Positions 3,093-45,688 of a DNA stretch of 64,000 nt are shown piece after piece; position 1 is the stretch's first letter; each line of letters begins with the position of its first letter. This DNA comes from a virus. A program made the position numbers and the translations under genes. The notes below the pieces were generated by a model. It was not told the origin of the DNA and made no database searches. It saw nothing but the letters and a program-made list of their open reading frames with translations. The stretch lies in IMG/VR virus record IMGVR_UViG_3300005663_001084, positions 24,929-88,928 of that record; one strand, given 5' to 3'.

Positions 3093-4057
3093 CAGTACAT
3101 TCTCTGCCCAGGCCTGCCGCGTTGCTGCCCGCTGAAGTACCAGACCGCCTCGACCTCGGGGAACCGGTCGACGAGCCGCTTCACGACGACCTTCGCTTTC
3201 CGTGCAGCGATGGGATTGTCGAGCAGGTCCCAGGCCGTGATGCTGGCCTCGCGCCGCTGAGGGTCGTAGCGTCCGCCGAAGTCAGGAGCGCCCTGAGTGT
3301 CGTAAATCAGGTTGTGGAACTTGTTCGGATCGACGCCTTCATCGCTGGCAACGCGCAGCCGACCTTCGTCCCAGATCCACGCGTCGGTACCTTCGCCGTG
3401 GCCGACGGTGAGGTAGTTGGCGGGGGCTTCGTCCAGGACCGCCTCGGCCCGGACCAGGGATTTGTCCTGGATCTCGTAGCCCTCAACGGCACCGACGTTC
3501 GCATAGTCGAAGCCTTGCAGGACCGCAACTTTCTGTTCGGCGAACCGACCGTGGACGATGTAGTAGGCAGCCTGCCCAACGACCTCGGTGAACAGCGCAG
3601 GCCGGGCTTCCACGGTAGCCAGCTTGGCGTGCGTGTTGTACGCGGCGAGTTCCCCACGGAGTGTGAACGGCTGACCGCGGGCGATGTGCGTGAAGTAATC
3701 GTGGACGGTCCGGAATAGCAGATTGTCCTCGACGCTGAAGACCGGGTGCTCAGAATCTCCGCTGTAGATTTTTAGAACGCCTGTCTCGCGGAAGTCCCGC
3801 TGCATTTCTTCAGACGACTCGTACGGGTCCTCGTCCGTGTACTCGACACGGGACCGGCCCAGGAACCGGCGAAACAGAATTTTGTTGCTGCTGTTGAGCG
3901 CCTCCCAGTGGCGGGCCGCGTCCGGGTCGTAACTGGGAGCCTCCTCGTAGGCGTCAGCGACGAGCCGCGCGTACTCGTTAAAATCTTTAAGTTCGAGCTT
4001 CTCGCGCACGTCCGCTTCGAGAAGCAGCTTCCGGATGGCTGTGCGGGTAGCGTCCAT
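3092..4057 (-). CDS. L-family protein 2 (321 aa)
   Basis: N-terminus MDATRTAIRKLLLEAD. The C-terminal approximately 110 aa are homologous to protein 1 (EGVDP..., AARKA..KRL...WYF). Confidence 0.7.
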   Translation of the reverse strand: MDATRTAIRKLLLEADVREKLELKDFNEYARLVADAYEEAPSYDPDAARHWEALNSSNKILFRRFLGRSRVEYTDEDPYESSEEMQRDFRETGVLKIYSGDSEHPVFSVEDNLLFRTVHDYFTHIARGQPFTLRGELAAYNTHAKLATVEARPALFTEVVGQAAYYIVHGRFAEQKVAVLQGFDYANVGAVEGYEIQDKSLVRAEAVLDEAPANYLTVGHGEGTDAWIWDEGRLRVASDEGVDPNKFHNLIYDTQGAPDFGGRYDPQRREASITAWDLLDNPIAARKAKVVVKRLVDRFPEVEAVWYFSGQQRGRPGQRMY

Positions 4058-4431
4058 CAGATCTTCACGTCCTTCCGCAACGAAATGTGGACACCGGGGT
4101 TGATCTCGTCCAGCTTCAACCTGAGCTTGATGACCTCGACCTGATGCGGCCTGAGATTACGATCCCGCGCGGCGTAGAACGCGGCGTCCTTCGGGCTGTC
4201 AGCAACATACGTACCTGCCCGCAGAACGTCGTAATCACTGCGCTTCGGACGACCGTGATACAGTTCGACGGTCCCATCGAGCAGGATCGGGATGCCGTGG
4301 CGCTCCAGGTACTCGCCTACGGTTTCCTTGCCGAGAACCGGGTGGTCGAGCCAGACGCGGTTCAGACCCCCCTCGTCGTCGGCATCAGCCTCGTAGAGGA
4401 TCTTCCGGATGGCTTGGCGGGTGGCGTCCAT
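4057..4431 (-). CDS. L-family protein 3; possible H-Y-E ADP-ribosyltransferase- or Tpt1-like fold
   Basis: N-terminus MDATRQAIRKILYEAD. Motifs LYHGRP, GTYVADS and VEV. Confidence 0.65.
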   Translation of the reverse strand: MDATRQAIRKILYEADADDEGGLNRVWLDHPVLGKETVGEYLERHGIPILLDGTVELYHGRPKRSDYDVLRAGTYVADSPKDAAFYAARDRNLRPHQVEVIKLRLKLDEINPGVHISLRKDVKI

Positions 4432-4907
4432 CAGCGGCCCTCGATCTTGTCCGCGACGTTCACCATCTGCGAGAGCATGTTCCGGTAGCCGCCGCCGTGT
4501 TCGATGTTGGGGACGTCCGCGCTGTGAACCGCATCGATCTCGGTCTCACCGCGCTGAAGCGCCTCAATCGCCCGGTGGTGACCGTCCAGTATGAACCAGG
4601 CAGCGCGCTTTTCGAGCTTGCTGACCAGGAGCGGACTCTTAGCAGCATGGTAGGATAACTCCCCTTTCTCGATTTCACTGAAGGTTTTATCAATCTTCGG
4701 TTCCCAGGCGTACAGGCTGCGCAGCCGGACGCGCCAGGGTTTTCCCTTGATCGCGGCCTCAGCCAACAGACGCTTCACAAGATCGGGTGGGTAGCCCCGG
4801 TCAGAGCAGCCAGGAGGGGGTGCGGAGATCGAGCCGTCGCCGACCTGTTGGAAGACGCCGCGACCCTCGTTGAGGATGGAGCGAATGGCTTTGCGGGTGG
4901 GGTCCAT
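4431..4907 (-). CDS. L-family protein 4 with ParB/DGQHR-like nuclease domain
   Basis: N-terminus MDPTRKAIRSILNEG. Motif WFILDGHHRAIEALQRG, which is the ParB/Srx-type DGxHR signature. Confidence 0.7.
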   Translation of the reverse strand: MDPTRKAIRSILNEGRGVFQQVGDGSISAPPPGCSDRGYPPDLVKRLLAEAAIKGKPWRVRLRSLYAWEPKIDKTFSEIEKGELSYHAAKSPLLVSKLEKRAAWFILDGHHRAIEALQRGETEIDAVHSADVPNIEHGGGYRNMLSQMVNVADKIEGR

Positions 4908-4976
4908 CAGTCGTTTAGCATCCGCCGGGATTGTCCTCGTGGAATGAACTCGTCAGGTCGGCGTAGTGCATCGCAG

Positions 4977-9558: not shown

Positions 9559-9605
9559 AACAGTATTATCGGATCGGGGCGGCTATTTAGCCAAGGAAAA
9601 TTATC
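9559..9605 (-). promoter_or_regulatory. class-1 conserved leaderless promoter
   Basis: The reverse complement reads aattttccTTGGCTAAATAGCCgcCCcGATCCGATAATactgttATG. Confidence 0.65.
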
Positions 9606-11514
9606 CGGCAGCGTTTAACCGCTCAACCGCCTTGGAGAACGCAAGAACACGTAAGTAGGTAGTGTCTCTCACTTTTCCTGAAATCGCCTCGATGATCTTT
9701 TTTGCAGTACACTCGGCGATCCTGGCCCCTCTGGACAGTTCCTTCACAGAGTATCCCGCACACAGCGAGCGCATCACATGCGTGTCGACGAACACGGGAA
9801 GGTCCTCCCAGTGCCGGAGGCATACCTGCATCAGCATCCGCTTAAACAAATCCTTTTCCACACTGACCTGGGCACGCGCTATGCCGGAGACAAGCGCGCT
9901 GCCCTTCCGAGCCCTAGGTTGCCGTGGGCGATTTACCTTCGGACGCTTGACCACGCGAGTCCTCGCCTCTTTCAAGGCCTCGGCCGCTTGCGTGATCTGA
10001 TCAGCCCAGTGCTGCCGAACCCGACGGCCGGGCTTGTCCAAGTCGTAGAGGTACTCGTAAATGGTGTACCGTTTCATCCCGGTCACTTCCGCTACAACGC
10101 TGGCGGCCATCCCTCGAATCAGTGGCGCAATCTCCGAGAGCAGCACCGACCGTATAGGATTACAACGCAGTTGTACTTCCCGAGCCACCTTCGCTGCACA
10201 AGCACCCACGCAGTACCGGGACCGCCAGTTGAGCGGGAGGTCCGCCTTGCAGACGCAACACGCACGATAAGCCAGGGGCAGGTCTGGGCGAACGGTACCA
10301 AAAGCTGCCTGACTCACACGAACAATTCCCACGCTGACCTCGGCCACAACCTTTTGCTGCGTCTGCCCGGCGGCGTAGCGTTCGCGGATATCGCGGATGA
10401 GATCGTCATCGTCGAACCAATCCGGCTTTGGCTCTCGCAGCAACGCCTGTAACCGATACCGCTCCTTCTGCTTGGCTTCTACGAATTTCTCCAAACATTT
10501 CGTAGAACAATAAACCCAGCGACTGGGCGGCAAAGGAGACTTCCCACACTGCTTACATACGGTGCCAACCTGACTTTCCTTCCGCTCCTTCTTTAGCTCC
10601 CTCGACCGCCGAACCCCAGCGACCGCGCGCACCTGGGCGTGTCCCGCCGCGACACACTCACCCGTACAGTACTTGATGTACTTTCTTGGTCTTCCGAATC
10701 GGACGTAGAAGCGGTTGCATTTCGCACACCGTGGAGCGACCCGACCGCGACGCGTTCGCTGCTTCTTGCTTGGTGTAACCGGTTTATTGCCTATGAGGAA
10801 GTTTGCCGCATCTGCCTGCATTCCGTCGTAAGCGACGTCCAGCGCGGCTTTGCGAAGACGCACGCGCATAGCCTTCTGCCCACAGCCCCTACGCTGCGTC
10901 GAGCTTGGGCAGAACAGGGGCAGCTTGCCACCCTTCGGCGGTCGGCGAGCTTTGAATGTTTTTTCACAGTGCGCACAGACGATACTGATTGCACGAAGCG
11001 GGATCAGGGGAAGGTGCTTGTACGTCTTTCCAACCGCGACAGCGTATACCGATGCCGAGCAGACATCGAACTCCTCGGCCAGGGAATAGGATGTCTGACC
11101 ATCCGCCCAACGATCCCGGACTTCCATTACCTCGGCGTCGCTAAACAGTCCTCTACTGCCCCGACGACTCCGCCCTCTCGGGATAGTCCTTGCCCGGACG
11201 TCGTTTTCTATGGCACGCGCCTTACGGATTGCATACTTGGACGCGGCCTCACCGATCTGAGGGTACAGCGCCCGGTAGCTCCGCTTCTTAACGACGTCTT
11301 TGCAGGCGTCGTCACAGTACTGCTGATTGTAATTCTCGGCGTAAAAAGGCCCCTCGCAGGCGTTACACTCTCGGGCAGTGTCCCAGGCCCAGGTCTTACC
11401 CCGCAAAATATTACCGACGCAGGACTTATCTACGCTGTACGTCTTCGCAATACGTGCCCGGCTCCACCCCTGCCGGGCGCGCTTCCGAATCAGATCCGCC
11501 CGGCGGCGAGTCAT
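9601..11514 (-). CDS. multi-domain DNA-binding protein with four to five tandem HTH plus zinc-ribbon modules
   Basis: Repeated HTH-like segments: RARQGWSRARIAKTYSV, RDRWADGQTSYSLAEEF, RERYAAGQTQQKVVAEV. Each is followed by Cxx C...YC(S/T)xxC zinc ribbons. The start is taken at the internal Met MTRRRADL. Confidence 0.6.
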   Translation of the reverse strand: MTRRRADLIRKRARQGWSRARIAKTYSVDKSCVGNILRGKTWAWDTARECNACEGPFYAENYNQQYCDDACKDVVKKRSYRALYPQIGEAASKYAIRKARAIENDVRARTIPRGRSRRGSRGLFSDAEVMEVRDRWADGQTSYSLAEEFDVCSASVYAVAVGKTYKHLPLIPLRAISIVCAHCEKTFKARRPPKGGKLPLFCPSSTQRRGCGQKAMRVRLRKAALDVAYDGMQADAANFLIGNKPVTPSKKQRTRRGRVAPRCAKCNRFYVRFGRPRKYIKYCTGECVAAGHAQVRAVAGVRRSRELKKERKESQVGTVCKQCGKSPLPPSRWVYCSTKCLEKFVEAKQKERYRLQALLREPKPDWFDDDDLIRDIRERYAAGQTQQKVVAEVSVGIVRVSQAAFGTVRPDLPLAYRACCVCKADLPLNWRSRYCVGACAAKVAREVQLRCNPIRSVLLSEIAPLIRGMAASVVAEVTGMKRYTIYEYLYDLDKPGRRVRQHWADQITQAAEALKEARTRVVKRPKVNRPRQPRARKGSALVSGIARAQVSVEKDLFKRMLMQVCLRHWEDLPVFVDTHVMRSLCAGYSVKELSRGARIAECTAKKIIEAISGKVRDTTYLRVLAFSKAVERLNAAG

Positions 11515-12152
11515 CTTTTGCGTTTTTTGCTTGCCTTGGTGCGCAATAGCTGTTGGATCTTCTTGATCACGGTGCCCCGAGTGACGCGGTACCGCGTTCC
11601 GGTCGACATAATGGCCCATACGACGCCCTTGTCATCCAGTTCCGCGTCCGCGACGAACGGGACGGTCTTGCGGGTCCGGTTGAGCGGCAGCTTCGGCCTA
11701 GTGAACCCGAGCGCATCCGACAGAGGACGCGGGTCGGCGATCTCCAGGGCTTTGTCGATGGCCTTGTCGATCTTGACCCGGGTGATGCCGCCCTGGTTCT
11801 GCTTGACCCGCAGCATGTTCAGGTAGCTCGCACCGATCCCGCGCATCATGGCCACCTTGAGCGACTTGTCGGGCAGGTTCCCCCGGCCGACTTCGAGCAT
11901 CACCTTGAGGTGCTCCAGGCTGCGGAACAGGACGCCGTGCTCGACGAGGCAGCGGTCCGTGAACTTGACGAACTCCTCGGGGGGCAGCTTATCAGACACT
12001 TCGACCATGATGTACGAGACCTCCAGAAGGAAGTCGGACTCGGCCTCCCCGTACTGGTCGATGATGCGCATCGCGGCGGCTGCGGACTTGACTGCGCGGA
12101 TCTCCTTCATCGTGGTGTAGGACAGCTTGCGGCGCGTTTTAACTTTGGGCAC
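11511..12152 (-). CDS. hypothetical protein
   Basis: ORF; basic C-terminal tail KKRKR. Confidence 0.5.
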   Translation of the reverse strand: MPKVKTRRKLSYTTMKEIRAVKSAAAAMRIIDQYGEAESDFLLEVSYIMVEVSDKLPPEEFVKFTDRCLVEHGVLFRSLEHLKVMLEVGRGNLPDKSLKVAMMRGIGASYLNMLRVKQNQGGITRVKIDKAIDKALEIADPRPLSDALGFTRPKLPLNRTRKTVPFVADAELDDKGVVWAIMSTGTRYRVTRGTVIKKIQQLLRTKASKKRKR

Positions 12153-14437: not shown

Positions 14438-14773
14438 TTAGTTGCCCCTCGTACGCGGCTGCCGCGTCTCGGGGTCCATCTCGTACGTCATCACTTCGTT
14501 GCAGAAAGTAATCGTCCCGCCGCCAGACAGTTTGCCGTCCCACACCTTGCCCCACGTCTCGTCTTCCCGCGAGCCAGTGATTGTGACACGGAACCCTACG
14601 TGTTCGCCTTCAGCGAGAACCCATGATGCCCCCGTCCAGTCTACACCTTCCGCCGGTTCCGCAACCCGCTGTCCCAGCGGATAACACAGCACCGTCTTGT
14701 TGCTAGGCATGGGAGTCTCGTCTTCAGGAGCCTCAGTGAGGAGGTGTCGGAGAGCTTTGCGGGTCTGATCCAT
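14438..14773 (-). CDS. L-family protein 5 (111 aa)
   Basis: Internal start MDQTRKALRHLLTEAPE of ORF 14438..15253. Confidence 0.65.
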   Translation of the reverse strand: MDQTRKALRHLLTEAPEDETPMPSNKTVLCYPLGQRVAEPAEGVDWTGASWVLAEGEHVGFRVTITGSREDETWGKVWDGKLSGGGTITFCNEVMTYEMDPETRQPRTRGN

Positions 14774-14836
14774 GGGCAGCAGTATACCTGGATATTCGAG
14801 GATTGCGAAATTGAAACGGGCAAAAATTTTGTGTGG
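14774..14836 (-). promoter_or_regulatory. class-2 upstream motif with a TATACT leaderless -10
   Basis: The reverse complement reads CACACAAAATTTTTGCCCGTTTCAATTTCGCAatcctcgaatatccaggTATACTgctgcccATG. Confidence 0.55.
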
Positions 14837-14837
14837 C

Positions 14838-15362
14838 TCAGGTCTGTAGGTCCAGGCGCAGGAAGATGGCTTCGTAATTCTCCCGGGACTCGCGATGCGT
14901 CTCCACAAAGCCAAAACGCTCGTACAAGTGGTGGGCCGCCCGCTCGTCGTCGAGATCAGACGTAAACAGCTTGAGGCACTCGTAGCCCTCATCCTTGGCC
15001 CGCTGAATCGTGAAGCGCAGCAAATCGGTCCCCAGGCCCTGCTTCCGGTGGTCGGGATGAACGCAGAACCAACCGACCCAGATCGCCTCGGGCGTAGGAA
15101 TCTCGTTGTAGAAGCCAGTAACCCCAGTGACCACACCGTTTTCAATAGCAACCCAGTAGCGAATGTCGGAGCACTCGTGGGCTTCCATGAAATCGGTGTG
15201 GGACCCAGGACGGGTGGCCTCCTCAAAGCAGCGCTTGATGGATTCCTGGTCATCGTCCTTGAACACCTGCTGCGTCAACAGCATGGCCTGATCGGCGAAC
15301 TCAGCGGTGAGCGGCAAGGGCTTCACAACAGTATTATTGGATCGGAAGGCCTGTTTACCCAA
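14838..15362 (-). CDS. GNAT family N-acetyltransferase
   Basis: Motif VHPDHRKQGLGTDLL (GNAT motif A) and C-terminal YERFGF. A GTG start near 15326, 6 nt after the promoter GATAAT-like -10, is equally likely. Confidence 0.7.
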   Translation of the reverse strand: MGKQAFRSNNTVVKPLPLTAEFADQAMLLTQQVFKDDDQESIKRCFEEATRPGSHTDFMEAHECSDIRYWVAIENGVVTGVTGFYNEIPTPEAIWVGWFCVHPDHRKQGLGTDLLRFTIQRAKDEGYECLKLFTSDLDDERAAHHLYERFGFVETHRESRENYEAIFLRLDLQT

Positions 15363-15375
15363 GGAAATCCGACTC
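15327..15375 (-). promoter_or_regulatory. class-1 leaderless promoter variant
   Basis: The reverse complement reads atttccTTGGGTAAAcAGgCCtTCCgATCCaATAATactgttGTG. Confidence 0.5.
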
Positions 15376-15867
15376 GGGAAACCTCTTCGCGCGTCGCATG
15401 AGAGCCTCAGGCGTCATCCGGGGGTGCATCAGGTCGGTGACATCGACCTTGATGGCCTCCCGCTGATCCCAGACGTCGAGGTAGACCGTGTCGCCCAGCG
15501 TCAGGCCGGGCAGCAGGACGCGCAGGCGATTCAGAACCTCGGAGTCGAGCGTGGGCACCGTAATCCCGTCGTCGTAGCCGCGAATCCAGCCGTGTTCTAG
15601 CGCTTCGGCCTCAACCCGTTGGCGGTCGTGGGGATCGTCGGAAACCGTGCTCACCTCGTCCAGCAACTCCTCGATGCCCGGGTCGCCAGGGTACATCTCA
15701 GGAAAGCGCCTCAAGGCCTCAGCGGCGTGCGTCGTCCAGCCACTCCCAGTCCAGCCACTCCCAATGTTGATGTACTCGCCGTCGGGCAGGAGCCACCAGC
15801 GGCCCAGCCATGTGGACTCGCGGGCCTCGGTGAGGATGGAACGGATGGCGTGACGGGTGGAATCCAT
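15355..15867 (-). CDS. L-family protein 6; WxLPDG-domain paralog of protein 7
   Basis: N-terminus MDSTRHAIRSILTEAR. Motifs WWLLPDGEYINIGSGW and HGWIRGYDDG. Confidence 0.7.
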   Translation of the reverse strand: MDSTRHAIRSILTEARESTWLGRWWLLPDGEYINIGSGWTGSGWTTHAAEALRRFPEMYPGDPGIEELLDEVSTVSDDPHDRQRVEAEALEHGWIRGYDDGITVPTLDSEVLNRLRVLLPGLTLGDTVYLDVWDQREAIKVDVTDLMHPRMTPEALMRRAKRFPESDFLG

Positions 15868-16391
15868 TAGGCCTGCCGCGTGACTTGGGCAGGATGCTTT
15901 GCCAGCAGAACCGTCTCCACATCGGCGTACATGTACCCACTGCCATATTCGAGCAGGATTTTGCCCTTCGTGGCACCCCGGTCGAGCAGGAACGTCTGTA
16001 TACGCCTCAGCGACTCAGCATCGAACTCCAGCATGTCGAAGCCGCCGGTATCGGTTACACGAATCCAGCCATCCCGGATCGCCACCTGCTCAGGGTTGTT
16101 CATGTAGCGCGCGACGAAGTCAGGCTTCTTGGCGTACTCCCGAGCAATATCGGCGTGGACGTCGTACCAGGGGCCGTCGAAGGTCTCGTCCATGATGTCC
16201 TGCTCAGAGGCCGACAGGAACCCCCAGTCGATCTCAGCAGCGACGGCCAGAGCAGCCGCCTCGTGATTCCAGCCACTGTCTTCAACAGTCACAACCTCGC
16301 CATCAGGCAGAATCCAGTAATCAGCACGGAGCACGTCGGCAGCATCGGACTCAGTGAGCAGCTTTCGGATGGCGTGACGGGTCTGATCCAT
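15867..16391 (-). CDS. L-family protein 7; WxLPDG-domain paralog of protein 6
   Basis: N-terminus MDQTRHAIRKLLTESD. Motifs YWILPDGEVVTVEDSGW and DGWIRVTDTGG. Confidence 0.7.
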   Translation of the reverse strand: MDQTRHAIRKLLTESDAADVLRADYWILPDGEVVTVEDSGWNHEAAALAVAAEIDWGFLSASEQDIMDETFDGPWYDVHADIAREYAKKPDFVARYMNNPEQVAIRDGWIRVTDTGGFDMLEFDAESLRRIQTFLLDRGATKGKILLEYGSGYMYADVETVLLAKHPAQVTRQA

Positions 16392-16460
16392 GGCGAAAAC
16401 ATCATATCAGGGAATCCGGGGATCTCGAAATTGAAACGGCCCAAAATTTTGTGTGTTCGG
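16392..16460 (-). promoter_or_regulatory. class-2 upstream motif
   Basis: The reverse complement reads CGAACACACAAAATTTTGGGCCGTTTCAATTTCGAGatccccggattccctGATATGatgttttcgccATG. Confidence 0.5.
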
Positions 16461-16992: not shown

Positions 16993-17040
16993 AACAGTAT
17001 TATCGGCCTGCGAGGGCAATTTGGGCAGGTGAAAATCAGG
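16993..17040 (-). promoter_or_regulatory. class-1 leaderless promoter variant
   Basis: The reverse complement reads gattttcaCCTGCCCAAATtGCCcTCgcaggCCGATAATactgttATG. Confidence 0.55.
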
Positions 17041-24721: not shown

Positions 24722-24964
24722 TCATGCCGTCACGCCCATCTCCTTCAGCTTTTCAAAGACATCCTCGGGGATCTTCTCCCAGAAGACGATGTGCCGGAGC
24801 TTGTAGCCGCCCTGCTGAGGTTTATGGAGCCAGAGCAGCGGGTGCTTGCTAGTGATGAGGCTGCGGAAGGCGGGGCCTTGGACATGCCCGCCGTGGTCAG
24901 GCGTGCTCAGGTAGTACTGCGTCTCTTCGGTGTAGCAGACGTAGTATCGGGTCCGGCTGGGCAT
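24722..24964 (-). CDS. hypothetical protein
   Basis: ORF. Confidence 0.4.
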   Translation of the reverse strand: MPSRTRYYVCYTEETQYYLSTPDHGGHVQGPAFRSLITSKHPLLWLHKPQQGGYKLRHIVFWEKIPEDVFEKLKEMGVTA

Positions 24965-34856: not shown

Positions 34857-35786
34857 ATGAAAGAAGTCAGCCCCCCGGCGGCAGATGTCGGCGTCCTAGT
34901 CGGCAGGTTCCAAGTCCACAAACTCCACGAAGCACACCTGGAACTGATCAGGCACGTGGTCAAGCACCACGACCGCGTGATGATCTTCCTGGGCATGTCG
35001 CCGTGCCGCGTCACGAGGAACAACCCCCTCGACTTCGACGCCCGCAAAGCGATGATCCAGGACGCCTTCCCGGACGTAAGTGTCTACTACGTCAGGGACT
35101 GCCGACCCGATGACCTGTGGTCTAAGCGCCTCGACAACATGATCTATGAGCACATCAAGCCGGGCGCGAAGGTCCTGCTGTACGGTGGGCGCGACGCGTT
35201 CATCAAGCACTACGAAGGCAAGATCCCCACGCGCGAGTTGGAGCAGGAGGTCTTCATCTCGGGCACCGCCGTGCGCAACACCATCGCCAACACCGTGCCC
35301 AAGACGACCGACTTCCGCGCCGGGGTCATCTGGGCCTCCCAGAATCAGTACCCGCGTGCCATCCCCACCGTCGACGTGGCCGTCTGGGACGAGACCGGCG
35401 AGAAGCTCCTACTGGCCCGCAAGCCCGACGAGGATCTCTACCGCTTCATCGGCGGCTTTGCCACTGGCCCAACGTACGAGTCCGACGCGCGGCGCGAGGT
35501 CGACGAGGAAGCGCACATCGCCATCACCGATCCAGTCTACGTGGGCTCGCATCAGGTCGACGACTGGCGCTACCGCAGCGAGGCCGACAAGATCGTCACG
35601 CTCCTATTCGAGGCCAAGCGGCTCAGCGGCAACCCACGTCCCGACGATGACATCGCTGAACTCAAGTGGTTTGATTTCGCAACACTCCGCGACGAAATGG
35701 TCGTCCCGGAGCACCGTCCACTCCTCAAGATGCTTCAATGCAAGAGGGAGACACACCATGAAGACGAACATCGTACTGGCGACTGA
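34857..35786 (+). CDS. nadM: bifunctional NMN adenylyltransferase/Nudix hydrolase (NadM-Nudix type)
   Basis: N-terminal cytidylyltransferase-fold block VLVGRFQVHKLHEAHLELI. Nudix box GGFATGPTYESDARREVDEEAHI. The 3' end overlaps the nadV start. Confidence 0.8.
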   Translation: MKEVSPPAADVGVLVGRFQVHKLHEAHLELIRHVVKHHDRVMIFLGMSPCRVTRNNPLDFDARKAMIQDAFPDVSVYYVRDCRPDDLWSKRLDNMIYEHIKPGAKVLLYGGRDAFIKHYEGKIPTRELEQEVFISGTAVRNTIANTVPKTTDFRAGVIWASQNQYPRAIPTVDVAVWDETGEKLLLARKPDEDLYRFIGGFATGPTYESDARREVDEEAHIAITDPVYVGSHQVDDWRYRSEADKIVTLLFEAKRLSGNPRPDDDIAELKWFDFATLRDEMVVPEHRPLLKMLQCKRETHHEDEHRTGD

Positions 35787-37140
35787 CAGCTACAAGCTCA
35801 CCCACTGGAATCAGTACCCACGCGGCACGGAGAAGGTCTACTCCTACTTCGAGGCGAGGCCCGGCGCGAAGTACCGCGACACCGTGTTCTTCGGTCTCCA
35901 GTACATCATCGCCGAGTACCTCGCAGGCCACGTCGTCACGACCCAGAAGATCGACGAGGCCGAGGCGTTGGCAGCCCAGCACTTCGGCAATCCGAACATC
36001 TTCAACCGCGCCCGCTGGGACCACATCGTCGACCAGCACGACGGCCGCCTGCCTGTCCGCATCAAGGCGGTGCCCGAGGGCACGCCGGTCCCTGTCAACA
36101 ACGTGATGATGACCATCGAGAACACGGACCCGGCCTGCTACTGGCTGACCAACCACCTGGAGACGATCCTCACGCACGTGTGGTACCCGTCCACCGTGGC
36201 CACGCAGAGCCGGGAGGCCAAGCGGATCTGCAAGAGGTACCTCGAAGAGACTGCCGAGTCCGCTGGCGGCCTGGACTTCATGCTGCACGACTTCGGCTAC
36301 CGTGGCGTGTCGTCGGTGGAGTCGGCTGGCCTCGGCGGCGCTGGTCACCTCGTCAACTTCCACGGCACTGACACCATCGCGGCGATGGAACTGCTGCGTC
36401 AGTACTACGATGCCGACGTACCCGCGTTCAGCGTACCGGCCACCGAACACAGCGTGATGACCGCGCACGGTGCAGACGGTGAGAACTGGGTGCTGTCGCA
36501 ACTGCTCGATGCCTACCCTACCGGCATCCTGTCCATCGTGATCGACTCGTACGACTACCGGAAGTTCATCAAGATGGCAGGCACGACGTTCAAGGATCGC
36601 ATCCTTGCCCGCGACGGCAAGGTCGTCTTCCGTCCCGACAGCGGAGATCCGTGCGAGGTGACACTGGAGGTCCTGGAACTGCTGGGCGAGTACTTCGGGT
36701 CAGCCGACGGTAAGCCCGGCTACAAGATCCTGCACCCCCAGGTCGGCGTGATCTGGGGCGATGGCATCGATCTCGAAGACATGGAGCGCATCCTGGCCGA
36801 CATCACCTACGCGGGTTGGAGCGCCGAGAACATGGTGTTCGGCATGGGCGGCGGCCTGCTCCAGAAAGTCAACCGCGACATCCAGCGCTTCGCGTTCAAG
36901 AGCAGCTACCAGGAGCGCGGCGGCGAAGGCCACGACATCTTCAAGGAGCCCATCGACAAGACCAAGACCAGCAAGAAGGGCCGACTGAAGCTGGTGCGCC
37001 TCGAAGGCGCGCACGGCTCCACGCTGACCACCGTCGGCATCGATGATCCACGCGAGGACCTGCTGGAGACGGTCTTCGAGGGCGGTCAGGTCCTGAAACG
37101 TTACAGCCTGGACGAGATCCGCGCGAGAGCAGCACTGTAA
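35758..37140 (+). CDS. nadV: nicotinamide phosphoribosyltransferase (NAMPT/NadV)
   Basis: MKTNIVLATDSYKLTHWNQYP...FGYRGVSS...HGTDT. It is co-linear with the NAMPT family throughout. The track ORF 35146..37140 is over-extended into the nadM alternate frame. Confidence 0.85.
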   Translation: MKTNIVLATDSYKLTHWNQYPRGTEKVYSYFEARPGAKYRDTVFFGLQYIIAEYLAGHVVTTQKIDEAEALAAQHFGNPNIFNRARWDHIVDQHDGRLPVRIKAVPEGTPVPVNNVMMTIENTDPACYWLTNHLETILTHVWYPSTVATQSREAKRICKRYLEETAESAGGLDFMLHDFGYRGVSSVESAGLGGAGHLVNFHGTDTIAAMELLRQYYDADVPAFSVPATEHSVMTAHGADGENWVLSQLLDAYPTGILSIVIDSYDYRKFIKMAGTTFKDRILARDGKVVFRPDSGDPCEVTLEVLELLGEYFGSADGKPGYKILHPQVGVIWGDGIDLEDMERILADITYAGWSAENMVFGMGGGLLQKVNRDIQRFAFKSSYQERGGEGHDIFKEPIDKTKTSKKGRLKLVRLEGAHGSTLTTVGIDDPREDLLETVFEGGQVLKRYSLDEIRARAAL

Positions 37141-39283: not shown

Positions 39284-39285
39284 CT

Positions 39286-39671: not shown

Positions 39672-40103
39672 CTAAGCACCGTACTTCTCTCGTACGGTCT
39701 CCGCATACTTGGGCACCACAGCCACCGGGATCTGCTCGAAGCCTGCGTCACGCAGCACAGCGAAGCGGTGGCGACCGTTGGTGAATCCGGGCAGGCCGGA
39801 CTCGTACGGCCCAATCTCGGGCATGATGATCGGCACGTCCGGGTTGTCGTGGAACCACTGCTGGAACTTCTCATACCTGTTGCTGATCGTAGGCCCGGTG
39901 CCGCCGGGGCCTACGTAGTCCGACGACTGCGCCCAGGCCGCGTCGAACTTGGCCACGTCCACTACGACCTCAACATCGGTACCGGCACGTTCAGGTTTGA
40001 CGAACAGACGACCGCCAACATTGAACTTCTTGTGAGGAGAACTCTCCGGAGGCCGCTCCGCTGCCTCGGTCAGGATGTGGCGTATGGCTCGGCGCGCGTC
40101 CAT
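39672..40103 (-). CDS. L-family protein 10 with ParB-like domain
   Basis: N-terminus MDARRAIRHILTEAA. Motif GFTNGRHRFAVLRDAGF. Confidence 0.65.
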   Translation of the reverse strand: MDARRAIRHILTEAAERPPESSPHKKFNVGGRLFVKPERAGTDVEVVVDVAKFDAAWAQSSDYVGPGGTGPTISNRYEKFQQWFHDNPDVPIIMPEIGPYESGLPGFTNGRHRFAVLRDAGFEQIPVAVVPKYAETVREKYGA

Positions 40104-41095
40104 CAGTCACCTGCCTGACGCTGACGTTCCCGGCGGGCGAACAGCTTAGTCTTCTCTTTCTCCGCACGGCGTACAGACACAATCTTCACACTGGCATACT
40201 TGGTGCGTAGTTGATTGATCGCTTCGTGCCACCTGTCCACGCTTTTCATCACGTCGGTCCAGGTGTCGAAGGCGTAGCCTCGCTTACCCAAAAACGGAAA
40301 CTCCCCTGTCTTCTTCCAGTGCGGGTAAGCATCCATGTACTTCTGCTCAGGGCTGATCACCCAGATATCACTGGACTCCGGAACTTTAAGGGCACCGGAC
40401 TTCACTGCCCACTCGACCTCGGCAGAGTACAACGCGCCCATGTTCTTCACGCCCTGATGAAACCACTTCTTCCATTCGGAAGCGTCTGGGAAGTCCGGCT
40501 GGTCGTAGTCCAGGTGGCTCGTAATTGCTCTTCGGTATGGGTCGTCTGAGTTGTGCTCTTCATCCAGGAACTGCAAGAACAGCCTGACCATATCGTCGAC
40601 GCTGTTTATCCTGCGCCCTGATCTCGCGATCCAGTGGCCAAAACTCTGTAGTGGCCCGCTGTACTGGAATCCGTAGTGTTGCTGCGCCGCCCCGAAATCT
40701 CTGAGCGCTTTCAGGACGTAACTTCCCATCTTCGTAAGGATCTGCTGTGGGTCTCCGGGACTGTTGAACAGACGGCCGAGGGCTTCCATGTTGTTGGCCA
40801 TGAGGTACGCTGGATCGTCGTACCGGATCATCGATACGTCGTTGAGGGCGGCCACGTCATCGCCGGGCATGCGGATCAGGAGTTCGCGGAGTTGTCCCCA
40901 GTCCATGATCATGTCCTGAATGGACGTGGCCCCGATACCCTTCAGCCCTTCGAGGCGACCGCTCATCAGATTAGCGAGCATCTCGTCATAGTTATAGGAC
41001 CCGAAGTCCAGCGCGAGGTAGAAGTATTGAGGCACGGCAGCGTCGGCTGCCTCGGTCAGCATGATGCGGCGCATGGCTGTGCGGGTGGGGTCCAT
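40103..41095 (-). CDS. L-family protein 11 (330 aa)
   Basis: N-terminus MDPTRTAMRRIMLTEAA. ATGA-coupled. Confidence 0.7.
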   Translation of the reverse strand: MDPTRTAMRRIMLTEAADAAVPQYFYLALDFGSYNYDEMLANLMSGRLEGLKGIGATSIQDMIMDWGQLRELLIRMPGDDVAALNDVSMIRYDDPAYLMANNMEALGRLFNSPGDPQQILTKMGSYVLKALRDFGAAQQHYGFQYSGPLQSFGHWIARSGRRINSVDDMVRLFLQFLDEEHNSDDPYRRAITSHLDYDQPDFPDASEWKKWFHQGVKNMGALYSAEVEWAVKSGALKVPESSDIWVISPEQKYMDAYPHWKKTGEFPFLGKRGYAFDTWTDVMKSVDRWHEAINQLRTKYASVKIVSVRRAEKEKTKLFARRERQRQAGD

Positions 41096-41718
41096 CAGTA
41101 GTAGCTCGGGTTGTAGGGCCGGTCCTCGCCGTACTGCTCGACCAGGGCACGCAGGCTGTCGTCCAAATGCTCGACGGCCTCGCGATACTTGCTGTTGTTG
41201 AGTGGGTAGTACAGGGTGCCTGTCCGCTCGTAGACTACGAGAATCCCCAACGTCGCCTCGGCCAGCTTGATGACCACGTCGTAGCAGGCGTCAGCCGCCG
41301 CGCGGTACAGCGGGTCCTCCACCTGGAGCGAGCCCTTCATCCTGGTGGCGCGCTTGCGTAGCCGTGTCGCGGCCTTCTGCATCGACTCCAACGACTCGTC
41401 CTTGTACTTGCTGACCTCCAGGTGCTCGCGGTACACGTCGCGTACATACTCTTCGTTGACGTGGCGGATGATGCCCATCTCTTCGTTGATGTGGCCGACC
41501 TCGATGCGGAGCGGGCTGGCCTTCGCATAGACCGCAGAGCCCAGCGAGCCCAGGATGCAGTGGACCGCCTCGGCGATGCGCTGGAGGCCAATCTCGTACT
41601 CGGTGTATGCCTGGAACCAGCCGCCTTCTGGCAGGCCGCCGTAGATCGTGCCAAGGGCGCAGTGGTCAGGCGCAGCTTCGGTCAGCATCTGGCGTATGAC
41701 GTGGCGTGTCTGGTCCAT
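41095..41718 (-). CDS. L-family protein 12
   Basis: Internal start MDQTRHVIRQMLTEAA of ORF 41095..41817. Confidence 0.65.
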   Translation of the reverse strand: MDQTRHVIRQMLTEAAPDHCALGTIYGGLPEGGWFQAYTEYEIGLQRIAEAVHCILGSLGSAVYAKASPLRIEVGHINEEMGIIRHVNEEYVRDVYREHLEVSKYKDESLESMQKAATRLRKRATRMKGSLQVEDPLYRAAADACYDVVIKLAEATLGILVVYERTGTLYYPLNNSKYREAVEHLDDSLRALVEQYGEDRPYNPSYY

Positions 41719-41722
41719 CGCG

Positions 41723-43399
41723 TTACTCGAACAGGTGGATCTCTTTCGGATTGAACTCAGCTTCAAGGACTCCCTGAAGTTTGCCGGTCCACTTGTACTG
41801 ACCGGGGTTGACAACACTGAGCCTGCCGGTGTCGCCCTCGAAGTGGCCTTTCCAACGGCTATCGACAGGAGGGTCCAAGTAGTCCCAGACTAGGTTGTGC
41901 GACCACGTGGGCAGTTCACCGTGCTCCTGAAAATACTCTTCCATGGCTTCGTCGTCTTCCAGGTCGAAGTCAACCAAGTCTTCCATGATCTGTTGATGGC
42001 GCTCGACTTGACCGTGATTCAGCACCCATATCTCATGTGTTCTTGGGTCTGTATAATCCATCTCGAACTCGTCGCCAGGATCGACATGGTACGCCTCGTT
42101 GCCATGCCCAAGCTCGAAGTAGAATATCGCTGTACTTTCGTCACCAACCGTGTGCGGGACGACAGGAGACTCGGTCAGCAGGATACCGCGCATGATCTGC
42201 CGCATCGAGTCCGCCACGTGCCGCTCGCGTCCGCGCTGTCCGTAGGCGGGCTCCCCGAACTCGTCCGGCCACGGCGTGTCTTTGTACGACTGAAACTGTG
42301 GATCATCCAAGAACGTGCCAAGGTGTTTCCACCGCAGACGCAGGAGTTCCTCAGGAAGAAGCTCGTGCGTTCGGCTTTGGTTAAGCGGCCACGGGTTGGT
42401 GGGCCTTTCCTCGTCTCCCGGCATGAGGTCGCGTACGCTGCCGGGCTTGACGACGAACGTCGGTCCCACGCGCTCGATGTACTGCCTCCAGAACTCGGGG
42501 TCCGGCTTGCCGTAGAGTACCGTGTAGCGCTGGTACATGTCCGCGCCGGTCCTGGGCATCTGTCTCCAGTGCCATGCGTTGTCGTTCTGGACCGCCCAGA
42601 GGATCTTGTTGGCTCCCCGAAAGCCCACGTCCTGGTCAAGCCGGATGTTGCTGGCCCCAAACATCGCGCCTTTTGTATGCTTGGCGATCTGACCGCGCAC
42701 GGCCCGGAGCAGCTTCTCGTGCGCCTCGCGGACGATTGGCGTCGTCTTGGCTGTCCCACTCCAAGGATCGGTTGCCTTCTCTTCAATCGCCGCGCGCATC
42801 CAAGCTCGGATCATTTCCTTGTATGGGCGGAAGAGTCTCAGGGCGAACTCGCCGGGCATGCGCCGTTCGAGCTTCTCGTTCAAGAACCCGATGAAGTCCT
42901 CGAAGCTCGGCATCATGGCCCCGTCTACCTTGTCGTACCACTCCTTGTCCCAGTGCGCTGCCCCGGTCGCCTTCCGGTAGCTCTCCCAGTCAAGACTGTC
43001 AAGCGCGATCAGGATGGCCTGGGCCGTGTCCGACGAGGGGATGTTCTGGCCCACTCGGCGCATGAAGAGCGTGAGAGGGATGCTGGCCGAAAGCTGGTCT
43101 TCGTCGAACAGCGCGGTCCGCGTCTCGACCTGGAGGCCGAACACGACCGGCGCGCCGCCGAACTTCTCGGCTGCCTTTCTGGCTTCGCTCTCTGCCGTCA
43201 TCGCGTTCTGTGTAGCATAGATGCCTCCGTACGAGGCGATGGTGCCGCGCTCGGGATCGTACTGGCGCTGCTCGGGAGGAATGTCGGCACGCAGGCCCTC
43301 CTTGAAGACCAGACGGGCGCGGCCTGAAGACGTTCCGTGATAGTAGATCTCGCGGGCTTCGGTGAGCATCCTACGTATGGCTTGTCGGGCTGCGTCCAT
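41723..43399 (-). CDS. L-family protein 13 (about 558 aa); possible H-Y-E ADP-ribosyltransferase-like N-terminal domain; internal second leader motif
   Basis: N-terminus MDAARQAIRRMLTEARE. Candidate ART motifs YYHGTSSGR and YGGIYAT. Internal copy SMRQIMRGILLTES. The C-terminal approximately 170 aa are homologous to protein 14 (FYFELGHGN...LPTWSH...KGHFEGDTGRLS...EIHLFE). Confidence 0.7.
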   Translation of the reverse strand: MDAARQAIRRMLTEAREIYYHGTSSGRARLVFKEGLRADIPPEQRQYDPERGTIASYGGIYATQNAMTAESEARKAAEKFGGAPVVFGLQVETRTALFDEDQLSASIPLTLFMRRVGQNIPSSDTAQAILIALDSLDWESYRKATGAAHWDKEWYDKVDGAMMPSFEDFIGFLNEKLERRMPGEFALRLFRPYKEMIRAWMRAAIEEKATDPWSGTAKTTPIVREAHEKLLRAVRGQIAKHTKGAMFGASNIRLDQDVGFRGANKILWAVQNDNAWHWRQMPRTGADMYQRYTVLYGKPDPEFWRQYIERVGPTFVVKPGSVRDLMPGDEERPTNPWPLNQSRTHELLPEELLRLRWKHLGTFLDDPQFQSYKDTPWPDEFGEPAYGQRGRERHVADSMRQIMRGILLTESPVVPHTVGDESTAIFYFELGHGNEAYHVDPGDEFEMDYTDPRTHEIWVLNHGQVERHQQIMEDLVDFDLEDDEAMEEYFQEHGELPTWSHNLVWDYLDPPVDSRWKGHFEGDTGRLSVVNPGQYKWTGKLQGVLEAEFNPKEIHLFE

Positions 43400-43403
43400 T
43401 GCG

Positions 43404-45230
43404 CTACTCAAAAACGTGAATTTCAGTCGGGCTGAACTCGGAGCGGAGCATTCCGATCAACTGGTTGGTGAGTTTGAAGCGTCCAGGGTTCATGGCGCTG
43501 AGCCTTCCGGTGTCACCCTCATAATGACCTTTCCAGTACTGGTCGGGGTTCGGCCAGAGCATACCATGCGACCACGTGGGCAAGCCTCGTCCCTTCTCTT
43601 CTTGTTGATCGACGTAAGCCTGCAACGCTTCGGGATCGCTTAGGTCAACACCCTCGTCCTCGATGTTAGGCATGTTAAGCTGATGGTAACGCTGGATTTC
43701 GCCGTGCATCAGAACCCAAATCTCATGGGTCAGCGGATCGGTGTACTCCATCCCGTCGTCATACGAGGTGTTCCCGTGTCCGAGGTCGAAGTAAAATACG
43801 GATGTACCTTCATCGTCGATCTTGTGGAGCGTGACATCGCTGGCGACGACAGATTCGGGGAGGCTCTCCTTGTCCATCACCACAAGAGCCGGAAGCGCCT
43901 CGACACCCAGGACGTGGAGAGCGTCGTACCGGTGGCTGCCCTCCAGGACGTACGGGCCTTCTTTGTCGACAACCACGATCAGCGGCACGATCCAACCACT
44001 TGCAGCGATCTGCTGCGCCAGTTCGCGGGCCGCCTCGTTGTCATCTCCAGAAGTCTCGAAAGCAGACAAGGGAACGGCGCGGATGCCGGACAGCACCTCG
44101 TAGTCCAGAAGACTGGCCGCGATGGAACTGGTATTTGGAACTTCGTCACCCACGCGGAGGCCGCTGACCTCGTCACCAGCCCGTGGGTAGAGTTCGTCCT
44201 CCTGGGCCTCGGCGAGTATTCGACGTATCACACGTCGGCTTTCGGTCAGCGCCTCGTCCTGCCCGGCGTAAAACCTGCGGATCGCACCCATGATGCGGCG
44301 CGAGTTTTCTCCGGGATCGAACATGTAGGACTTATTCCGTTCGGCCTTCCAGTAGTAGTCGTTACGCTCGTCGAATTCGCCCAGGCCGTCCTCCATATCG
44401 ACCGGCATGCCCTCGGCGCTGAAGTTATCGATCCAGCCCTCCAAGGTCCGGTACTGCGCCGAGGTGGGCTGGACCATCATGTCGAGGCCGCCGTCTTCAG
44501 GCATCAGACGGATCGCGCCCAGGCTCATAAACTCCTGCATGCCGCGCGTGCCGCCCCCGCCGTAACCGATGTTCCGATGGTCAAAGCCGCGCCCGTAGCC
44601 GCCGCCCCCGCCCGAGATCATGTCGCCGTCAGGCAGCAAGTAGAACGCATCGGTGAAGCTGCTCGTGATCCCGAACCGGCCCTTGGCTTTCTCGAACGGG
44701 TCGGCCTCGTCCTCCGCGTCCTCTACGCCGGGCCAGTCCTCCATGGACAGCGGCATCTCGTTGTCTAGCTTTCGGAGAACCTGGAGCGGGATCTCGCGGT
44801 ACCTGGACTCCTGGCCGTTCTGCACACTACGGAATACGGAGCGAGCGTACTCTCCGGCCGACCAGCCGAACTCGTCACTGATCACTCCAATGATCCGGGC
44901 GTGGAAGTCCAGCAGTATCTGGGGTTCGTTCTGGACGAGCGCAGCCATCTCTCCCGGATTCCAGTTGAGTGCGTCGTAGACCGCGCTCCAGATAGTCCGG
45001 TGCTCACCCTCGTCGAACGTAGCCAGCGTGTACTCGGGGAACAGTTCAGTGACAATCCTCTCGTAGCGCTGCCAGTCGTAGTCCCTGTCCTCCTCACGGT
45101 TTACCGCGTCCAGGAAGAACTCCCGCAGGTGATCGTACGTCATGTTCCAGACGTGCCGAGGCTGGGTGGGAGCCTCAACGCTGGCCTGCTCGGCCAACAC
45201 CTGCCGCATCACTAGGCGAGTGGCATCCAT
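43404..45230 (-). CDS. L-family protein 14 (about 608 aa) with internal leader copy, ParB-like domain and a C-terminal domain shared with protein 13
   Basis: N-terminus MDATRLVMRQVLAEQ. Internal copy ESRRVIRRILAEAQ. ParB-like motif YVLEGSHRYDALHVLG. C-terminal FYFDLGHGN...LPTWSH...EIHVFE. Confidence 0.7.
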   Translation of the reverse strand: MDATRLVMRQVLAEQASVEAPTQPRHVWNMTYDHLREFFLDAVNREEDRDYDWQRYERIVTELFPEYTLATFDEGEHRTIWSAVYDALNWNPGEMAALVQNEPQILLDFHARIIGVISDEFGWSAGEYARSVFRSVQNGQESRYREIPLQVLRKLDNEMPLSMEDWPGVEDAEDEADPFEKAKGRFGITSSFTDAFYLLPDGDMISGGGGGYGRGFDHRNIGYGGGGTRGMQEFMSLGAIRLMPEDGGLDMMVQPTSAQYRTLEGWIDNFSAEGMPVDMEDGLGEFDERNDYYWKAERNKSYMFDPGENSRRIMGAIRRFYAGQDEALTESRRVIRRILAEAQEDELYPRAGDEVSGLRVGDEVPNTSSIAASLLDYEVLSGIRAVPLSAFETSGDDNEAARELAQQIAASGWIVPLIVVVDKEGPYVLEGSHRYDALHVLGVEALPALVVMDKESLPESVVASDVTLHKIDDEGTSVFYFDLGHGNTSYDDGMEYTDPLTHEIWVLMHGEIQRYHQLNMPNIEDEGVDLSDPEALQAYVDQQEEKGRGLPTWSHGMLWPNPDQYWKGHYEGDTGRLSAMNPGRFKLTNQLIGMLRSEFSPTEIHVFE

Positions 45231-45688
45231 CAGCCCCAGGCTTCCTTGTCGTGCTGTACCAGCGCGCGGGTCATGTCCTGGGTGAGCGGCTCGACGTTGA
45301 TGGTGTCTTCCGACGGGACCGCAGCCATCCGCTTGAGCCACTGCCCTTCCGCCCCGGCCTGCGAAAGCGGGTCTGCCGTGTCGACCTCCCACTCCTCGCC
45401 GCTCGGGCTGAACGTGACAATGGAGATGTCGCCGCTCCCCATGGCCTGATTCAGATCCCAGTCCATCTTCGAGGCCCAGCGTATGGCGTCGAACTTGTTA
45501 TCGAACGCGAAGATTTCACCCTGGCCGTAGCGCTCGCCAGTCCCAGACATGGCCCAGTTGGAGGGCTGCATCGGGACGAGCCCACGCTTCTGGATATCTG
45601 AGACCCGGTCAGTGGGGGTGACGTGGTAGTACTCGACGCCCTGGGCCTCGGTGAGTATCCGTCTGAGGGCTCTGCGGGTGGGGTCCAT
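45230..45688 (-). CDS. L-family protein 15; possible ART-like fold
   Basis: Internal start MDPTRRALRRILTEAQ. Motifs YYHVTPTDR, GEIFAFD and EEWEVD. Confidence 0.6.
   Translation of the reverse strand: MDPTRRALRRILTEAQGVEYYHVTPTDRVSDIQKRGLVPMQPSNWAMSGTGERYGQGEIFAFDNKFDAIRWASKMDWDLNQAMGSGDISIVTFSPSGEEWEVDTADPLSQAGAEGQWLKRMAAVPSEDTINVEPLTQDMTRALVQHDKEAWG

Follow-up and report, generated by a model that had tools for sequence, protein, structure and literature searches.

A 64,000-nucleotide stretch of viral DNA (positions 24,929 to 88,928 of IMG/VR record IMGVR_UViG_3300005663_001084; referred to below as the window) encodes at least two small proteins, and probably a third, with NAD+-using domains of the ADP-ribosyltransferase (ART) type directly after a common N-terminal leader. 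These proteins, m14, m12, and m3 (Table 1), are the members 15, 13, and 3 for which an original prediction, made from the DNA letters and their translations, had tentatively proposed H-Y-E-class ART or Tpt1-like folds (its numbers 13 and 15 agree with m12 and m14, respectively, if an internal leader copy in m12 is counted as a member). The fold assignment stood for m14 and m12, through profile comparisons and, for m14, an AlphaFold model, and is only probable for m3. We regard m12, m14, and perhaps m3 as probable effectors that modify the host, a type for which large phages already provide examples. The explanation that we favor, with moderate confidence, is that they are leader-tagged ART modules that would be packaged, cleaved, and injected and would use host NAD+ on host targets.

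Detection of ART-type domains in the window

All seven peptide motifs quoted in the original prediction were found, once each and on the minus strand. Their resemblance to ARTs exceeds chance: an ART-domain profile built from eight sequences, none of them from the window, ranked exactly these three proteins first, second, and third (m12, E=2.3e-8; m14, E=0.017; m3, E=0.75) among the 753 six-frame open reading frames (ORFs) of >=50 amino acids that were scored. The His and the aromatic residue of the motifs are kept in the homologues of m12, m14, and m3 alike, and the family profiles of m12 and m14 match Tpt1 chains in PDB (E=0.0014 and E=0.0057, respectively).

The m14 domain and its family

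Nine homologues of m14 were found, in which H22, GERYG-x-GE-[IV]-[FY]-AF, DA..WA.KMDW, and W100-x-x-D103-x-x-D106-P are invariant or nearly so. H22 is invariant among 10, 40, and 155 members of the family, and motif II corresponds to F62, which is Y or F family-wide (G-E-I-[YF]-A-F) and is followed by the DA..WA helix. The match of the family profile to the RNA 2'-phosphotransferase Tpt1 extends over the YHxT...GL.P segment, and an hhalign comparison of the family with phage KptA (E=1.5e-4) was limited to the N-terminal part. In the AlphaFold2 model computed from the homologue alignment (predicted local distance difference test, or pLDDT, 78.7; predicted template modeling score, or pTM, 0.75), the leader is a helix set apart from the domain (residues 3-16), the core has the order beta-alpha-beta-alpha-beta-beta-beta-beta-alpha, and the closest structural match is Tpt1. 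The model and the profile comparisons show that the whole body of m14 is a domain of the ART superfamily, in its H-Y-[E/D]/Tpt1 branch.

A HMMER scan of 1.84 billion cluster representatives, for which a leaderless m14-domain profile was used, retrieved 506 relatives at E<=1e-3, 314 at E<=1e-10, and 144 at E<=1e-30 (all counted as cluster representatives). With these 506 representatives, and with only sub-threshold matches of single sequences, the family is large yet present in neither Pfam nor NCBIfam, where a search found nothing. The consensus of 155 m14-type domains reads lYHVT.T..vp.I.k.G..p.q.sNWv..g.g.RYG.GeiyaFe...DA.rWA.kMDW.fn...GsGkiSiv.f......W..D..DPlsQag..G.WlK....v.p..I. Many of the domains are embedded in proteins of 1,000 to 4,341 residues. 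One of these, P0015 (3,238 amino acids), has in addition six ART-PolyVal stretches and matches to PARP and GNAT, and the start of its m14-type domain matches Pfam PTS_2-RNA (Tpt1/KptA) with 27.5 bits versus a gathering score of 26; giant proteins of this kind correspond to the "polyvalent proteins" described by Iyer et al. (PMC5512222).

The m12 domain

m12 consists of the leader, the ART domain, about 270 amino acids without a match, an internal leader-like motif, and a C-terminal domain of 150 amino acids. By sequence comparison, we assign its residues from about 16 to 122 to an ART domain homologous to that of m14, because the window-free profile, the PDB profile matches, and the hhalign comparisons of its family profile (A6) with that of the m14 family (A7) and with KptA agree. 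All of the 55 PDB sequences matched by A6 at E<=10 are H-Y-E-clade ARTs (55/55), among them, besides Tpt1, Arr (E=0.043), an exotoxin A-like protein (E=0.049), cholix toxin (E=0.07), diphtheria toxin (E=0.072), and PARP1 (E=0.35). A first hhalign comparison of m14 and m12 (93.5%) was inflated by the common leader and was set aside; repeated with leaderless profiles, the comparison of A6 with A7 gave 97.2% probability (E=2.8e-11) over 106 columns, and that of A6 with three phage KptA proteins (95.9%, E=5.7e-9) extended across the whole NAD+ lobe. A6 shows no variation at H21, Y61 is Y or F in the relatives of m12, and an acidic residue stands at the place of D99-E100-D101 in all of them.

When cultured phages were searched with tblastn, m12 gave weak but consistent matches (E=0.2-0.6, 23-27% identity) to hypothetical proteins of ~110 amino acids in T4-like Aeromonas and Acinetobacter phages and to gp53 of Bacillus phage G, and a weak match of m12 to phrog_2110 agrees with these. 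Among the relatives, phage G gp53 matches Pfam PARP (2.5e-4, sub-threshold), p060 of Acinetobacter phage Acj61 matches ART-PolyVal (0.07), and residues 186-246 of P0026 match PARP above the cutoff. The polyvalent proteins P0042, P0026, P0016, and P0015 contain m12-type domains as well.

A word-based search of a 5.8-billion-protein database with the N-terminal domain of m12 returned no homologue and not even m12 itself, and an IMG/VR scan with m12 gave no match. An ORF of 476 amino acids on the plus strand (41897-43327) runs opposite m12. The gene is probably uncalled in the public record, perhaps owing to this ORF; since m12 is missing from the protein database and has a long ORF opposite, the public gene calls may have taken the wrong strand here. 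The C-terminal ~150 amino acids of m12 (41723-42190) and m13 (43404-43860), both on the minus strand, share 51% identity (E=3e-45) and are rich in conserved His, Trp, and Asp; neither this common domain nor the middle region of m12 had a Pfam or PDB match.

The m3 domain

For m3, we hold an ART-type fold to be fairly probable, perhaps as a minimal or shortened ART relative. Invariant across its five homologues are LYH[GA]RPK, LR.G[TS][YF], P..A...A.R.R.L, [VI]EV, and D.I.PG, and with them H59, Y/F75, and D108; Y75 (Y or F) is followed by a P..A..YA helix. AlphaFold2 gave a pLDDT of 62 (67-82 for the core residues 40-110) and a pTM of 0.56, with predicted strands at 54-62, 74-77, 98-106, and 116-118 and a helix at 80-90. 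In hhalign comparisons, m3 aligned with the m12 family in the strand 2-helix-strand 3 segment (61%, E=8e-5) and with the m14 family in the same region (P=0.0025), and its His and aromatic motifs were in register with those of KptA (P=0.0023).

It is conceivable, if less than likely, that m3 has no relation to ARTs, being a small alpha/beta domain with an accidental likeness to them in its YHG...GTY...helix pattern. Neither a Foldseek search of BFVD with the model nor a search of PDB with the family profile gave a significant match, and tblastn against cultured phages returned noise only. The hhalign matches span just 31-39 columns, the m3 alignment comprises only five sequences, the His and the aromatic residue are only 16 residues apart, and the length of the domain is small for a complete six-stranded ART core. 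An accidental likeness is, however, hard to square with the consistent register in which the profiles of the m12 family, the m14 family, and KptA align with m3, with its third place among the 753 ORFs, and with the invariance of H59, Y/F75, and D108.

m3 is 100% identical to LCGC14_0163400, a protein from a marine sediment metagenome encoded on a 224,854-bp contig, and its source is therefore an uncultured element of jumbo-phage size. The G+C content of the window is 59%. A megablast search of phage genomes with positions 40000-46000 gave no match, and the window appears to have no close relative among sequenced phages.

Candidate catalytic residues and relation to Tpt1

The alignments point to a common pattern in the three proteins: strand 1 bears the His, strand 2 bears the aromatic residue, and an Asp or acidic cluster comes after strand 3. 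Such a pattern is reminiscent of an Arr-like H-Y-D triad, more so than of the Glu of PARP-type enzymes, and also resembles the H-Y-D ARTs of polyvalent proteins (PMC5512222); the Arr triad, which we take to be H19/Y49/D84, agrees with the alignment of A6 to PDB in its His and Tyr positions. The acidic third motif named in the original prediction had to be moved in two of the proteins. The Glu of EEWEVD in m14 (E101) is E, I, Q, or D in the homologues and was rejected as the catalytic Glu for this lack of conservation, the invariant acids being D103 and D106, and the Glu of VEV in m3 (E99) sits in predicted strand 3, the comparable acidic place being the invariant D108. Candidate catalytic residues are D103/D106 in m14, D99-E100-D101 in m12, and D108 in m3, the last of which follows strand 3 and corresponds to the place that the acidic residues of m12 and m14 occupy.

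The proposed likeness to Tpt1 proved to be confined to the NAD+ lobe. The ART domains start 3 to 8 residues past the leader (from about residue 16-18 in m14 and m12), the matches of m14 and m12 to Tpt1 cover only Tpt1 residues ~90-190, and the phage KptA proteins have ~95 extra N-terminal residues, the RNA lobe, which is absent from m3, m12, and m14. A reading of the three as bona fide Tpt1 was rejected for want of this lobe. None of them matched PF01885 at E<=1, so they lie below the Pfam gathering threshold.

Table 1. Features of the window (positions count from its first nucleotide)
Feature	Position	Strand	Details
m14	45230-45688	-	152 amino acids; 14-residue leader and single ART-fold domain; member 15 of the original prediction
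m14 leader MDPTRRALRRILTE	45647-45688	-	residues 1-14, L-x-E end; predicted propeptide/targeting tag
m14 ART domain	45281-45640	-	residues 17-136; H22, F62 (Y/F in family), invariant D103 and D106
VEYYHVTPTDR (m14)	45605-45637	-	motif search
GEIFAFD (m14)	45500-45520	-	motif search
EEWEVD (m14)	45380-45397	-	motif search
m12	41723-43399	-	558 amino acids; member 13 of the original prediction
m12 ART domain	43034-43354	-	about residues 16-122; H21, Y61, acidic cluster D99-E100-D101
EIYYHGTSSGR (m12)	43319-43351	-	motif search
GGIYATQN (m12)	43205-43228	-	motif search
m12 internal leader-like motif DSMRQIMRGILLTES	42167-42211	-	just before the C-terminal domain; regex scan
m13 internal leader motif TESRRVIRRILAEA	about 44205-44246	-	equivalent of the m12 motif
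m3	4057-4431	-	124 amino acids; leader, then conserved 103-residue domain; member 3 of the original prediction
m3 conserved domain	4060-4368	-	residues 22-124, 103 amino acids; H59, Y75 (Y/F), E99, D108
VELYHGRPKR (m3)	4240-4269	-	motif search
GTYVADS (m3)	4195-4215	-	motif search
Leader-tagged ORFs	2700-4907, 14438-16391, 22293-23098, 40103-45688, 63190-63663	-	MDxTRxAIRxxLxE
Sigma-70-like promoter TTGACT-18-TAAGAT	45697-45726	-	consensus scan; 8 nt from the end of the -10 box to the m14 ATG
NadM-like (cytidylyltransferase-like and NUDIX)	34857-35786	+	Pfam NUDIX 5.8e-12, CTP_transf_like 8e-4
NadV (nicotinamide phosphoribosyltransferase)	within ORF 35146-37140	+	phrog_448 3.5e-160; NAMPT_N 1.7e-40, NAPRTase 1.1e-42
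Nuc_deoxyri_tr2-NUDIX fusion	55076-56566	+	downstream of NadM/NadV
HD-domain phosphohydrolase	56821-57687	+	downstream of NadM/NadV

A common leader and its possible role in packaging

The leader of the three proteins, MDxTRxAIRxxLxE, is shared by 15 minus-strand ORFs of the window that are otherwise mostly unrelated, many of them arranged in runs with overlapping ATGA stop/start codons, and three more genes bearing it lie on a related contig (L002). It is conserved as protein while its codons vary synonymously (e.g., CGC versus AGA for Arg). These 15 ORFs thus combine a short N-terminal leader, unrelated cargo, and an L/I-x-E end, as proteins with a T4-type capsid targeting sequence (CTS) do. 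The cleavage consensus of prohead proteases is L/I-x-E. The same consensus is given in PMC5694885, and the internal proteins of T4 share with its ART Alt a CTS propeptide of 10-20 residues that is removed by gp21 (PMC3012670, PMC5694885). The leader behaves as a modular tag that follows the logic of the T4 CTS, and we infer, reasonably in our view, that it serves capsid packaging, which fits the data; cleavage of the leader would follow the same T4 precedent (PMC5694885, PMC3012670).

A regex scan found the leader motif again inside m12 and m13, at module junctions. These internal copies at domain junctions suggest that tagged genes which were once separate have been fused into m12 and m13; the two proteins may be cut into pieces, and the copy in m12 may be a second processing site. 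m13 (43404-45230, minus) has weak matches to ParB_N and PHROG ParB at residues 397-455, and on L002 this ParB module is a gene of its own, a ParB_N gene of 131 amino acids that comes next after the m14 orthologue. ParB-like domains are another hallmark of the polyvalent proteins of phages (PMC5512222). ParB/sulfiredoxin-like modules among the tagged proteins were seen in m13 and in m4 (4431-4907, minus, motif ILDGHHR). Two other tagged proteins, m1 and m2, share a separate domain at the C terminus of m2 (40% identity over 115 amino acids). Residues 32-188 of m2 (3092-4057, minus) match phrog_3170 (E=1.9e-22), a family with no assigned function, and m2 is the sole tagged protein with a strong PHROG match.

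In other phages, homologues of the ART cargo carry different leaders of ~10 residues that resemble the T4 CTS, namely MNFKQYIESE on an m14 homologue and MKFKTWLESE and MFRLWLENAE on m3 homologues; the proteins P0004, P0007, and P0012 combine m3- or m14-type domains with such leaders, and some m14 and m3 homologues have no leader at all. On metagenome contig Ga0180438_10001140 (L007, 2501-3318), the gene adjoining an m3 homologue has the same local leader, MKFMQWLEA. A further m3 homologue (L006, 4807-5400, in IMG/VR UViG_3300037486_000104) is frameshifted and preceded by a NPYHEPAGTTKGGRFAKAP linker; it lies just downstream of unannotated ORFs that, in our reading, resemble head/tail morphogenesis genes.

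NAD+ genes and other genes of the window

As the original prediction had noted, the window encodes NadV and a NadM-like protein, which were recovered by Pfam and PHROG matches. The true start of NadV is probably later than 35146, since its domains begin at about codon 204 of the ORF. Phage Nampt/Nmnat pairs rebuild NAD+ against host immunity that depletes it (bioRxiv 10.1101/2024.02.11.579819); because this is the published role, a link between NadV/NadM and NAD+-consuming ARTs, as the original prediction envisaged, is speculative and is not needed to explain these genes. In Acj61 (L004, 1-1791), the m12-like p060 lies four genes downstream of the NAMPT gene p064, and such a neighborhood of ART and NAD+-salvage genes may recur. 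Two proteins encoded farther downstream, the Nuc_deoxyri_tr2-NUDIX fusion and the HD-domain phosphohydrolase, are candidates for NAD+/ADP-ribose or nucleotide-signal metabolism. Genes resembling HNH/endonuclease VII-type homing endonucleases are scattered over the window (62317-63219, plus; 17036-17761 and 9601-11619, minus).

Proposed mode of action

In the explanation that we favor, the three proteins would be synthesized with the leader, which would guide them into the prohead; a prohead protease of the T4 gp21 type would then cut the leader off after L-x-E, and the mature enzymes would enter the host together with the DNA, where they would spend host NAD+ on ADP-ribosylating targets of the host as infection begins. 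These targets could be proteins or nucleic-acid phosphates, the latter being conceivable because of the closeness to the NAD+ lobe of Tpt1/KptA.

Several observations weigh against this explanation. As for the enzymes, (i) m3, m12, and m14 have no curated match in Pfam, NCBIfam, or the functional PHROG families; (ii) 40 members of the m14 family, searched singly against Pfam, gave only sub-threshold matches, to Tox-ART-HYD1 (4 members), PARP (3 members, best 3e-4), PTS_2-RNA (2 members, best E 0.047), and DUF7002 (5 members); (iii) in m3, m12, and m14 the canonical catalytic Glu is either lacking or not kept in homologues; and (iv) because the RNA lobe is missing, the likeness to Tpt1 gives no inference about the substrate. 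As for packaging, (v) m14 heads the m14-to-m10 gene run behind a sigma-70-like promoter; (vi) the promoter data suggest transcription by the host polymerase, possibly early and leaderless, over typical late expression; and (vii) no capsid, portal, or protease gene was found in the window.

The first group of points bears on the reaction catalyzed. An ART fold that acts on DNA or RNA ends or bases (Tpt1/KptA- or DarT-like), or that serves as an NADase or NAD+ phosphorylase (RES/MbcT-like), is an unlikely alternative in our estimate. The structure that m14 matches best is that of Tpt1, which is also the best PDB sequence match of both family profiles (m14 and m12), with which hhalign agrees, and the Glu that is canonical for protein-directed transfer is missing. 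Set against this, the proteins lack the N-terminal lobe with which Tpt1 binds RNA, the domain beginning 3 to 5 residues past the leader; the ARTs of polyvalent proteins are predicted to modify host proteins (PMC5512222); and injection of a pure NADase would be unlikely for a phage with its own NadV and NadM genes for making NAD+. The modules could also be catalytically dead and bind only NAD+, ADP-ribose, or a host factor, for example as decoys or sponges for immune signals derived from ADP-ribose. This we hold to be very improbable, since the His, aromatic, and acidic residues are invariant across hundreds of diverged members of the m14 family, as is typical of active enzymes.

The second group bears on whether the proteins enter the capsid. 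They could be early, cytoplasmic host-takeover ARTs that are never packaged, like ModA and ModB of T4, with the leader as an assembly, stability, or regulatory tag or as an aid to the translation of leaderless mRNAs; we think this rather unlikely. A sigma-70-like promoter lies directly before the m14 ATG, and -10-like boxes (TATACT/TATGAT) precede the start codons of m5, m7, and m9 by 7-10 nt, which hints at leaderless, possibly early, transcripts; the first genes of the tagged runs may be translated from such mRNAs. The sigma-70-like promoters in the region are not above chance (3 found, 2.0 expected). Furthermore, no structural genes lie nearby in the window, and a leaderless m14 homologue, P0008, is found among small early-type ORFs, where it adjoins a primase-polymerase gene. 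A tag with no part in packaging would, however, leave several features of the leader to be accounted for: it is conserved at the amino acid level despite synonymous codon changes, it ends in the L-x-E of T4-type proteases, it recurs internally at module boundaries, and it is replaced elsewhere, on the same cargo domains, by CTS-like decapeptides. The IMG/VR m3 homologue beside unannotated genes that we read as morphogenesis-like likewise speaks for delivery with the virion.

Two further observations concern the starts of the tagged runs. No Shine-Dalgarno sequence is visible at the starts of m14, m5, m7, and m9. Upstream of m5 and m7 lies an element, AAAATTTT-N4-CGTTTCAATTTCG (14806-14830 and 16426-16450, minus), with two exact matches versus none in 100 shuffles; it is followed by the -10-like box, 7-10 nt before the ATG, and may be a phage-specific promoter or operator.

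Significance and comparison with known systems

What is new here are, first, families absent from Pfam and NCBIfam, especially the m14 family with its 506 clusters; second, ART modules as free-standing, leader-tagged mini-proteins; and third, a modular architecture of leader plus cargo. Phage ARTs that arrive with the DNA reprogram the host within seconds, and, to our knowledge, Alt of T4 is the sole well-studied phage ART delivered in this way. The proteins of the locus are compact, single-domain versions (~105 to 140 residues when leaderless) of modules that are usually buried in proteins of thousands of residues, and this compact form makes them practical for biochemical and structural work. 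With a name for the m14-type family (>=506 clusters), many proteins of phages and prophages would be better annotated, and the locus with its common leader offers a testable model of how a giant phage loads varied effectors into its capsid.

Several ARTs in one jumbo phage are to be expected in kind, because ARTs are found in >40% of jumbo phages, with at least ten in phage G alone (PMC9503650), and because no other modifying domain is as common in polyvalent proteins delivered with the virion, where host proteins are the predicted substrates of the ARTs (PMC5512222). Of the ARTs of phages, about 44% occur in head-packaging contexts (PMC9503650). The nearest relatives of the m12 ART in cultured phages are the phrog_2110 ORFs (ORF170c of Aeromonas phage 44RR2.8t and p060 of Acj61) and gp53 of phage G, which, unlike m12, lack the MDxTR leader.

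With Tpt1/KptA (PF01885), which is the top PDB sequence match of both the m14 and the m12 family profile, the phage proteins share [LY]YH[GV]T, a helix ending in GL/GI, strand 2, a helix, strand 3, and the C-terminal G-x-W-L...P; by eye, G-x-W-L-K...VP-x-E-x-I at the C terminus of the m14 family resembles ENGVWL...IPF of KptA. They differ from it in lacking the N-terminal winged-helix lobe, which presumably carries most of the catalytic Arg-His-Arg-Arg tetrad, in having Tyr/Phe where Tpt1 has His at the second position of the triad, and, in the m14 family, in the extra conserved inserts SNW...RYG and W..D..DPLSQ. Arr (PDB 2hw2, 9iaf) is a minimal H-Y-D ART of similar size (~140 amino acids), with its His and Tyr in register with the m12 family and an Asp cluster after strand 3; however, the E-values are marginal (0.043 to 0.63), and Arr is a bacterial resistance enzyme that modifies small molecules, not a phage effector.

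In delivery, the closest parallel is offered by Alt and the internal proteins of T4, in which a short leader with an L/I-x-E end likewise precedes unrelated cargo, one cargo, Alt, being an injected ART (PMC5512222). The cargo genes are diverse and fast-evolving in both cases, and only the tag is conserved. Alt, however, belongs to the R-S-E clade and not to the H-Y-[E/D] clade, at least 15 genes are tagged here versus a handful in T4, and packaging and cleavage are here predicted. The T4 leader, which we take to be MKTYQEFIAE, is unrelated in sequence to the leader described here.

In domain content, the m14- and m12-type domains come close to ART-PolyVal/Tox-ART-HYD2 (PF18760), with copies of which they share giant multidomain proteins (m3 lies outside this observation); ART-PolyVal is likewise of the H-Y-D type, with a predicted role in the virion-delivered modification of host macromolecules (PMC5512222). 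m3, m12, and m14 gave no match to PF18760 at E<=1, and, because hhalign comparisons of the three with an ART-PolyVal profile built from the copies in P0015 and P0129 were not significant (P 0.013 to 0.08), we do not place them in that family. A further difference is that the modules here are separate small leader-bearing genes and not one fused polypeptide. As a tentative and rather unlikely extension of the comparison, the phage might have "unbundled" a polyvalent effector into at least 15 leader-tagged genes, among them three ART and the ParB-like modules, with the internal leaders marking recent fusions and the m14 type, as a large family related to the Tpt1 NAD+ lobe, ADP-ribosylating upon injection host nucleic acids or another non-canonical target.

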